From: Enterobacteria phage T6
Length of the DNA: 64,000 bases
Sequence record: MH550421
Direction: 5' to 3' (one strand)
Below the pieces are notes generated by a model, which saw only the letters and a program-made list of their open reading frames with translations, made no database searches and had not been told where the DNA came from. Numbering within the stretch: position 1 is the first letter of the stretch; each line of letters starts with the position of its first letter. Both the position numbers and the translations under genes were made by a program. Shown one piece after another: positions 33,681 through 34,806 of the stretch.

Positions 33681-33755
33681 TGGTATCCCGCCCTGGGATC
33701 GAACCAGGACCGCAAACTTAGAAGGATCGTATGCTATCCATTACACCAGCGGGAC
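33681..33755 (-). tRNA. tRNA-Arg (anticodon UCU)
   Basis: 75 nt incl. CCA; GTCCCGCTGGTGTAATGGATAGCATACGATCCTTCTAAGTTTGCGGTCCTGGTTCGATCCCAGGGCGGGATACCA folds as a cloverleaf. Confidence 0.85.
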
Positions 33756-33760
33756 ATAAT

Positions 33761-34426
33761 TTAAAATTTCATTTTTCGACCTTTAAACCATCCTTCTGGA
33801 ATTGGATCAGTTTTCTTAATACGTTTAGAAACTTTTTCATCTAATGAATGAATCCACATCATACCAAATTGGGAATTCTTTTCACCTTTCTGGTGATTAT
33901 TTTTAGCGTGAATTTCTTTCATTTTATTAATAGTTTCAAGAGTATGATGCTTATTTAAAAATCTGCTATTATTTAAAAATTTTTCCTTGTATTCAGGAGT
34001 TGACCATAAACGTTTAAATACATTTGAACCATTTTGACGATATTTTTCTTGAAGTAAAATATCATTTTTAAAACGTGACTTAAACGATTTAGCTCCTTTT
34101 AAACTAGCGTCTTTCTTCTGATTTAGCATCTCAGGAATATTTATATGATCCCATCCACCTTCACCGCCAAGTTTTAAATTATACACATCTGGTCTATTTA
34201 AAAACTCTTCTGTGACAATATTTTTCTCGGCTTCAAGCATAGATTCTTTATCATCAAAATATTCTAATATTTCTTTAGAAAAATTTTCTATACCATACCT
34301 GTCTTGGGCTCTTTTTAATAATTTACCAGAACCCATATATCCATCATCTAAATTTTCGGTAGAATGCACACCAATATAAATTTTATTATTAATTTTATTT
34401 GTTATTTTATAAAGATAAAAATGCAT
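33761..34426 (-). CDS. segB: GIY-YIG homing endonuclease SegB (inside the tRNA cluster)
   Basis: 222 aa from Met MHFYLYKITNKINNKIYIGVHS; the longer track ORF start overlaps the adjacent tRNA; location matches T4 segB. Confidence 0.75.
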   Translation of the reverse strand: MHFYLYKITNKINNKIYIGVHSTENLDDGYMGSGKLLKRAQDRYGIENFSKEILEYFDDKESMLEAEKNIVTEEFLNRPDVYNLKLGGEGGWDHINIPEMLNQKKDASLKGAKSFKSRFKNDILLQEKYRQNGSNVFKRLWSTPEYKEKFLNNSRFLNKHHTLETINKMKEIHAKNNHQKGEKNSQFGMMWIHSLDEKVSKRIKKTDPIPEGWFKGRKMKF

Positions 34427-34472: not shown

Positions 34473-34559
34473 TGGTGGGGAGTGGTGGAGTCGAACCACC
34501 CGAGTCGCAATGACAATGAATTTACAGTCCACACCGCTACCTCTACGGGATAACTCCCC
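34473..34559 (-). tRNA. Type II tRNA with anticodon GUA (tRNA-Tyr-like)
   Basis: 87 nt incl. CCA; acceptor GGGGAGT/ACTCCCC, anticodon loop CTGTAAA, long variable arm, T-arm GGTGG-TTCGACT-CCACC; hand fold. Confidence 0.55.
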
Positions 34560-34568
34560 TAATTAATT

Positions 34569-34645
34569 TGGTGACCCAGACCAGATTTGAACTGGTAACC
34601 TTTCCCTTATGAGGGGACTGCTGCTAACCATTGAGCTACAGGGCC
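34569..34645 (-). tRNA. tRNA with anticodon CAU (Ile via lysidine, or Met)
   Basis: 77 nt incl. CCA; anticodon loop CTCATAA; one T-T mismatch in the acceptor stem. Confidence 0.6.
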
Positions 34646-34646
34646 T

Positions 34647-34722
34647 TGGTGCTGATTGACGGAATCGAACCGCCGACATCCTCATTACAAGTGAGGTGCT
34701 CTACCTACTGAGCTACACGGAG
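34647..34722 (-). tRNA. tRNA-Thr(UGU)-like element with non-complementary acceptor stem (possible pseudogene)
   Basis: 76 nt; D-arm, anticodon arm (CTTGTAA), T-arm and 3' AATCAGC-A-CCA are canonical, but 5' positions 1-7 (CTCCGTG) cannot pair with the 3' strand. Confidence 0.4.
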
Positions 34723-34732
34723 TAGATTAAAT

Positions 34733-34806
<74 letters not shown>

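Follow-up and report, generated by a model that had tools for sequence, protein, structure and literature searches.

Sequence comparison identifies the 76-nt element at positions 34722-34647, on the minus strand of the 64,000-nt stretch of DNA analysed here (hereafter, the window), as a hybrid gene that consists of positions 1-7 of a tRNA-Pro gene and positions 8-76 of a tRNA-Thr gene, with the crossover somewhere within a nonamer, TAGCTCAGT, that the two parents share. We put at roughly 0.85 the probability that this hybrid was produced by a 165-bp deletion between repeats and is most likely a pseudogene, with the homing endonuclease SegB as a possible trigger of the deletion. The window belongs to phage T6: the 571 nt around the element are 100% identical to AP018814.1 and to its RefSeq copy NC_054907.1, and AP018814.1 coordinates equal window coordinates plus 31,995. 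The minus strand of the window carries both the tRNA array and the hybrid element, which is the sole correction that this placement brings to the preliminary description. In the GenBank annotation, the element is entered as 'tRNA-Thr' at 66716..66642 (window 34721-34647), and a 2026 paper treats it as such (PMC13096335). ARAGORN called six tRNAs in the T6 window; these genes, segB and the parts of the hybrid are laid out as follows.

34972-34899, minus strand: tRNA-Gln, the start of the array (ARAGORN, Rfam)
34898-34812, minus strand: tRNA-Leu (ARAGORN, Rfam)
34733..34806, minus strand: tRNA-Gly (UCC), the upstream neighbour of the hybrid (ARAGORN, Rfam)
34723..34732, minus strand: ATTTAATCTA, formerly the spacer between tRNA-Gly and tRNA-Pro and now the 5' leader of the hybrid (sequence, PST alignment)
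34647..34722, minus strand: 76-nt Pro(1-7)/Thr(8-76) hybrid tRNA-like element (sequence, Rfam, PST alignment)
34716..34722, minus strand: CTCCGTG, the 5' acceptor strand derived from tRNA-Pro, with which the Thr 3' strand cannot pair (alignment to the tRNA-Pro of PST and T4)
34707..34715, minus strand: TAGCTCAGT, 9 bp of identity at positions 8-16 of tRNA-Pro and tRNA-Thr, containing the crossover
34647..34706, minus strand: Thr-derived remainder (rest of the D arm, UGU anticodon arm, variable loop, T arm, AATCAGC, A and CCA), 100% identical to the tRNA-Thr of PST and T4
34569..34645, minus strand: tRNA with anticodon CAU (tRNA-Ile of T4; 'Ile2' of tRNAscan-SE), the downstream neighbour, starting 2 nt past the CCA of the hybrid (ARAGORN, Rfam, T4 order)
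34473..34559, minus strand: tRNA-Tyr (GUA), found in T6 and PST and not in T4 (ARAGORN)
33761..34426, minus strand: segB, a GIY-YIG homing endonuclease gene (221 aa), between tRNA-Tyr and tRNA-Arg
33681..33755, minus strand: tRNA-Arg (UCU), the last tRNA of the cluster (ARAGORN, Rfam)

Read on the minus strand from 34722 to 34647, the element is CTCCGTG-TA-GCTC-AGTAGGTA-GAGC-A-CCTCA-CTTGTAA-TGAGG-ATGTC-GGCGG-TTCGATT-CCGTC-AATCAGC-A-CCA. The canonical D arm, UGU anticodon arm, T arm, discriminator A and CCA listed in the preliminary description are borne out by the sequence and by the Rfam alignment: the anticodon arm has a 7-nt loop, with the UGU anticodon at 34689-34687 (minus strand), the T arm has a GTTCGAT loop, and the discriminator and CCA are in place. 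The 7-bp acceptor stem required of a canonical tRNA (nucleotides 1-7 with 66-72) is absent because the Pro-derived 5' strand cannot pair with the Thr-derived 3' strand. The failure of CTCCGTG to form an acceptor stem with AATCAGC had also been pointed out beforehand, and three of the seven positions pair (U2-G71, G5-U68 and U6-A67, that is, two G-U pairs and one U-A pair), as is typical of a random 7-mer, about 40% of which pair at 3 or more positions. A search for a displaced 5' strand of the kind expected of a split or permuted tRNA, GCTGATT(TAGCTCAG), returned four distant matches with three mismatches each, which is chance level, and this candidate was discarded.

The origin of the 5' heptamer emerges from comparison with Yersinia phage PST, the array of which reads Gln-Leu-Gly-Pro-Ser-Thr-Ile-Tyr-segB-Arg. 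From Gln through Ile, a single 165-bp gap is the sole difference between T6 and PST, and the sequence missing from T6 runs from position 8 of tRNA-Pro through the whole of tRNA-Ser to nucleotide 7 of tRNA-Thr. To the left of the gap, T6 retains the spacer between Gly and Pro, followed by the first seven nucleotides of tRNA-Pro (ATTTAATCTA-CTCCGTG), the heptamer CTCCGTG occupying positions 1-7 of tRNA-Pro in both PST and T4; to the right, tRNA-Thr continues from U8 on, with positions 8-76 being 100% identical to those of PST and T4. Because the 5' heptamer is the 5' acceptor strand of tRNA-Pro, we regard the element as a Pro/Thr hybrid gene: its two parents come from one array, the junction lies in a stretch of identity common to both, and the genes between them are lost. 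The two copies of TAGCTCAGT in PST are spaced by exactly 165 bp, the size of the deletion, and in both parent genes the nonamer spans U8 into the D arm, directly after the acceptor strand. The preliminary description had ascribed both the unpaired stem and the missing genes to one deletion with a breakpoint inside the Thr acceptor stem; the deletion is borne out by the 165-bp gap relative to PST, and the breakpoint has to be moved into TAGCTCAGT. The T4 gene order given there (Gln-Leu-Gly-Pro-Ser-Thr-Ile) matches the T4 array, and neither tRNA-Pro nor tRNA-Ser, both said to be missing from T6, is among the ARAGORN calls for the window. Escherichia phage CJY920 shares with T6 the absence of tRNA-Ser and of tRNA-Pro from position 8 on, sequences that PST, T4 and over 10 further related arrays contain. 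Compared with the tRNA-Thr (UGU) genes of T4 and PST, the T6 element is thus identical at positions 8-76 and is followed by the same gene, tRNA-Ile(CAU), but at positions 1-7 it reads CTCCGTG where the intact genes read GCTGATT, with the loss of the acceptor stem. The Thr-derived body carries zero mutations relative to PST or T4, which fits what would be a very recent deletion and gives no signal of decay; likewise, the identity of T6 and PST outside the gap implies an event that was probably recent and local.

The behaviour of tRNA-finding programs is in line with such a composite structure. The Rfam tRNA model (RF00005) matched the hybrid with 49.4 bits (E = 4e-9) over model positions 8-63 only, with zero non-canonical pairs and with both acceptor strands omitted from the alignment, compared to 75.4 bits over positions 1-71 for the intact tRNA-Thr of PST; the body of the hybrid is a genuine tRNA sequence and not a chance similarity. 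ARAGORN found no tRNA in the 87-nt gap that separates tRNA-Gly from the CAU tRNA of T6 and left the hybrid uncalled in both T6 and CJY920, whereas, in the control, it called the intact tRNA-Thr in PST and in T4. A normal call of tRNA-Thr by tRNAscan-SE had been named beforehand as evidence that would speak against a defective gene; the published call for AP018814.1 is 5'-truncated, a Thr/TGT prediction of 68 nt and 62.5 bits at 66709..66642, which corresponds to window positions 34714-34647 and begins at A9, compared with 76 nt and 82.0 bits for the PST tRNA-Thr (PMC13096335 supplement). The T6 call bears no 'pseudo' flag (PMC13096335), and such a partial match is easily mistaken for a gene. 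Thus, the hybrid was not detected from end to end by ARAGORN, the Rfam model or the published tRNAscan-SE run. Folding gave a cloverleaf for the intact tRNA-Thr (-25.4 kcal/mol, z = -2.6), while the isolated 76-nt hybrid folded at -20 kcal/mol (z = -0.7) without an acceptor stem, closed by an out-of-register 4-bp helix of G5-U8 with G71-C74 in which U8 and the initial C of CCA take part. On this folding model, the isolated hybrid RNA could conceivably retain residual structure. A structure that includes the leader (10-nt leader plus hybrid) was rejected, with z = -0.77, no better than shuffled sequences, and a broken D arm. Among other RNA families, Plastid-ycf2 and YrlA alone matched at this site, far under their gathering scores, and were dismissed.

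A trivial explanation of the hybrid would be an error of assembly or sequencing in AP018814.1, that is, a collapse between the TAGCTCAGT repeats that conceals an intact Pro-Ser-Thr segment in real T6. The phage collection that we searched contains one T6 genome and its RefSeq copy, and repeated tRNA motifs can confuse assemblers, but a 9-bp repeat is much shorter than any read or k-mer. Moreover, the Logan assembly of SRR12606221, which is independent of the reference, contains a 1,626-nt contig that is identical to window positions 35037-33412 with the junction included; the first seven nucleotides of the element, which read-level evidence might have altered, are exactly reproduced. The junction was also sought with a 45-nt query built in such a way that intact arrays cannot seed a 28-mer; among phage records, its matches were limited to T6, represented by two records of the same genome, and to Escherichia phage CJY920, in which the identical junction is embedded in a different sequence background. 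Finally, the T6 stock has been resequenced, and its array is still listed as Gln, Leu, Gly, 'Thr', Ile2, Tyr, Arg and treated as a Gly-Thr-Met-Tyr array (PMC13096335). Taken together, these observations make an artefact barely credible, and we consider the junction to be a real feature of T6. It is rare: about 507 phage records match the region, and two genomes carry the junction. A 29-nt junction pattern had 0 matches in IMG/VR, and a 43-nt pattern that includes the Thr anticodon arm had 0 matches in metagenomes and in bacterial and archaeal genome collections. The lone IMG/VR match to a shorter, 25-nt pattern was set aside since ARAGORN calls a normal tRNA-Pro there; this sequence probably comes from another phage because its tRNA array has a different gene order (Arg-Thr-Leu-Ile...Pro).

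The extent of the SRR12606221 contig is itself unusual. Its 5' end lies 65 nt upstream of tRNA-Gln and its 3' end about 3 nt from the equivalent of the 3' end of T4 rnaC, so that it spans exactly the stable-RNA operon, which would be surprising in a contig assembled from the DNA of a 169-kb phage. The reads may therefore derive from RNA-seq of infected cells and, if so, they would be contiguous across the hybrid. A data set of T6 tRNA fragments is also available (GSE303005).

The second occurrence of the junction, in Escherichia phage CJY920 (PQ349265.1, an UNVERIFIED record), bears on how often the deletion happened. The array of CJY920 is of the T4 type: its best intact relatives are T4 strains (96% identity), it is without tRNA-Tyr, it has the T4-type sequence after Ile, and it carries the T4 spacer T 9 nt before the junction. 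T6, for its part, is of the PST type on both sides of the junction. Sequence comparison therefore favours, as the more parsimonious reading, two independent deletions at one nonamer in T6 and CJY920, which we consider probable. The junction sequences are identical in the two phages, T-even phages exchange DNA freely by recombination, and co-conversion of this region is favoured by SegB (PMC2330249); one ancestral deletion might accordingly have spread between the lineages by recombination or gene conversion, and on the left a single haplotype-diagnostic SNP, 9 nt before the junction, is all that distinguishes the lineages nearby. Such a conversion tract, however, must end within the 9 nt between this spacer SNP and the junction, and the T4-type flanks on both sides in CJY920, the PST-type flanks on both sides in T6, and the identity of T6 to PST beyond the gap, a sign of a recent and local event, all run against a common origin, which we regard as unlikely. 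Recurrent deletion at the same nonamer is hence the interpretation that we adopt.

In CJY920, the ACCA end of the hybrid is destroyed and now reads ATATCA. We examined whether the CJY920 hybrid shows decay and found 4 changed columns relative to T4 (2 substitutions and a 2-nt insertion) as opposed to 1-2 per neighbouring tRNA; with numbers this small, in an UNVERIFIED record, this candidate signal was not retained. Elsewhere in the array (segment 985-1480 of PQ349265.1), substitutions affect conserved tRNA positions, including the T loop of tRNA-Gln and the 3' acceptor strand of tRNA-Leu, and the encoded CCA is lost in tRNA-Gly, too (CCA to CAA). Either the CJY920 record contains sequencing errors in these tRNAs or constraint on its array has been relaxed.

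With regard to mechanism, an ancestral PST-type array (Gln-Leu-Gly-Pro-Ser-Thr-Ile-Tyr) would have lost 165 bp between the two direct TAGCTCAGT repeats, presumably by recombination, annealing or slippage between these 9-bp sequences. Deletion between short direct repeats is a familiar event in T-even phages from the classical rII work, and deletions in the T4 tRNA region and in rII end at direct repeats a few bp long and are non-essential in laboratory hosts. In principle, the T6 case does not differ from these classical T4 deletions, except that it is fixed naturally or in the stock and that its endpoints are exact. A plausible trigger would be a double-strand break introduced by SegB in the segment that was lost, after which the ends would have been resected and annealed at the repeats on either side. 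The motif that SegB recognises in the T arm of tRNA genes is GGTTCRANTCC (PMC2330249; PMC13096335), and the enzyme cuts inside the T6 tRNA array, driving rearrangements (PMC13096335). Both GGTTCAAATCC core motifs of SegB, one in the T arm of tRNA-Pro and one in that of tRNA-Ser, fall within the deleted interval. On this circumstantial basis, SegB may have been the source of the break; replication slippage or unequal crossing-over between the repeats would be an equally possible cause. The published outcomes of SegB activity are homing with co-conversion and amplification, whereas a hybrid-forming deletion at microhomology is what we infer here. Exact repeats longer than the T6 nonamer occur between adjacent tRNA genes of PST, namely, GGTTCGAGTCC (11 bp, common to Gln and Leu; PST segment 1590/1675) and AGGTTCAAATCCT (13 bp, common to Pro and Ser; PST segment 1840/1929), and these repeats predict further hybrids of the Gln/Leu and Pro/Ser types.

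Both RNase P and threonyl-tRNA synthetase (ThrRS) need an acceptor stem, and the identity elements of E. coli ThrRS are the G1-C72 and C2-G71 pairs together with G35 and U36 of the anticodon. The hybrid has the UGU anticodon, and its C1 and U2 face C72 and G71, so that neither G1-C72 nor C2-G71 is formed. Given the lack of an acceptor stem, the transcript is expected to be a poor substrate for RNase P, and the hybrid RNA would most likely be unstable and uncharged, a by-product of transcription of the tRNA operon and, in other words, the product of a pseudogene. Cleavage by RNase P 5' of the CAU tRNA should persist, and the downstream tRNAs are for this reason probably unaffected. As judged from the gene content, T6 appears to be without functional phage tRNA-Pro, tRNA-Ser and tRNA-Thr; the tRNA genes of T4 are dispensable in laboratory hosts.

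One could alternatively imagine that the hybrid RNA is made, stable and used, either as a non-canonical tRNA or as a decoy or sponge for tRNA-targeting defences or processing enzymes. The element does sit in an expressed tRNA operon between functional tRNAs, it keeps three of the four arms and CCA intact, the minimum-energy fold of the isolated 76-mer has the alternative 4-bp closing helix, two phage lineages have one and the same junction, and phage tRNAs are known as counter-defence factors (PMC13096335). Nevertheless, neither the 76-mer nor the version with leader folds better than shuffled sequences (z = -0.7 and z = -0.77, the latter with the D arm disrupted), the junction is confined to 2 genomes among the ~507 matching phage records and was found in none of the IMG/VR, metagenome or bacterial and archaeal genome collections, the ACCA end is ruined in CJY920, and the deletion is too recent for conservation to have left a signal. 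In addition, a 'T6 tRNA-Thr' cloned with a forward primer starting TAGCTCAG, i.e., at U8, was used as a control and, when overexpressed, did not relieve Septu immunity or rescue T6, the construct thus beginning at U8 (PMC13096335). In the light of this evidence, we hold a functional RNA to be very improbable. Fainter still is the prospect of the specific scenario in which the hybrid is transcribed, persists in uncharged form and serves as a decoy that diverts a host nuclease directed at tRNAs or an enzyme that processes or modifies them, with the recurrence of the same junction reflecting selection; were it true, the junction shared by two T-even lineages would be a product of selection and not merely of a recombination hotspot. 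A non-functional hybrid, most likely a pseudogene, therefore remains our reading of the element.

Several other features of the array came to light during the analysis. The 221-aa protein encoded at 33761-34426 (minus strand) is labelled 'serine recombinase' in the T6 GenBank record; the identical protein of Yersinia phage PST (KF208315.1) is the product of a CDS labelled segB, homing endonuclease, and the T6 protein has a weak match to GIY-YIG in Pfam and is reported to be 94.6% identical to T4 SegB. By sequence similarity, the 'serine recombinase' label on T6 segB is a mis-annotation. The tRNA-Arg (UCU) is flagged 'pseudo' by tRNAscan-SE, with 44.1 bits, in both T6 and PST (table in PMC13096335). 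The T6 gene is identical to that of T4 and scores 48.8 bits with Rfam, with one mismatched pair in the anticodon stem. The tRNA-Arg of T4 we take to be a functional tRNA. The pseudo flag of tRNAscan-SE is accordingly misleading both ways in this array, where Arg is flagged and the defective hybrid is unflagged. The tRNA-Tyr (34473-34559) is not listed by the general Rfam tRNA model, its best match being tRNA-Sec with 30.9 bits, under the gathering score; it differs from the PST gene at two positions, in or beside the T arm, and is reported to counter Septu (PMC13096335). On the 3' side of tRNA-Arg, window positions 33680-33415 (minus strand) contain sequences homologous to two stable RNAs of T4, rnaD (species 2) and rnaC (species 1); they are unannotated in T6 and were matched by no Rfam family. 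Further on, at 33364-33341 (minus strand), there is a terminator-like hairpin with a 10-bp stem, 7 of the pairs being G-C, and a T-run after it, and this predicted hairpin probably terminates the tRNA operon. The stretch that comprises tRNA-Arg, rnaD, rnaC and the hairpin is about 96% identical between T6 and T4.

The arrays of other T-even relatives vary as well. In three of them, a 202-aa ORF takes the place of tRNA-Gln, approximately 110-720 nt downstream of trna.2, and ARAGORN detected no tRNA-Gln in these three genomes; others carry extra Asn and His tRNAs. In a published tRNAscan-SE table, no tRNA-Pro is listed for AP018932.1, in which some 660 nt separate Gly from Ser (PMC13096335). Comparison of these sequences indicates that the T-even tRNA array is a hotspot of gain and loss.

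Hybrid tRNA genes formed by deletion are not new in this family. McClain and Foss reportedly described, in 1984 (Cell 38:225-231), deletions in the T4 tRNA cluster that produce hybrid tRNA genes. The reported hybrids resemble the T6 element in the fusion of a 5' and a 3' gene at a short identity with loss of the genes between, but they were laboratory-selected mutants, whereas the hybrid analysed here occurs in the T6 reference stock and in the isolate CJY920; furthermore, the T6 crossover falls right after the acceptor strand and leaves mismatched acceptor halves. We found no paper, in a literature of which the older part was thinly covered, that calls the T6 'tRNA-Thr' a Pro/Thr hybrid or describes T6 as lacking Pro, Ser and Thr tRNAs. 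The T6 element is a further, precisely mapped case of a known type of event, and the result is chiefly a correction of annotation: the T6 'tRNA-Thr' should be annotated as a hybrid or a pseudogene.

The deletion opens no new biological question, and it provides a testable link to SegB-induced breaks as well as a clean natural case, with exact endpoints, of shrinkage of a tRNA array by recombination between conserved tRNA motifs. T6 is a workhorse of anti-phage defence studies, several of which hinge on phage-encoded tRNAs, and its apparent loss of Thr, Pro and Ser tRNAs should be allowed for wherever T6 is compared with T4 or T2 on hosts or defences by which these tRNAs are depleted.
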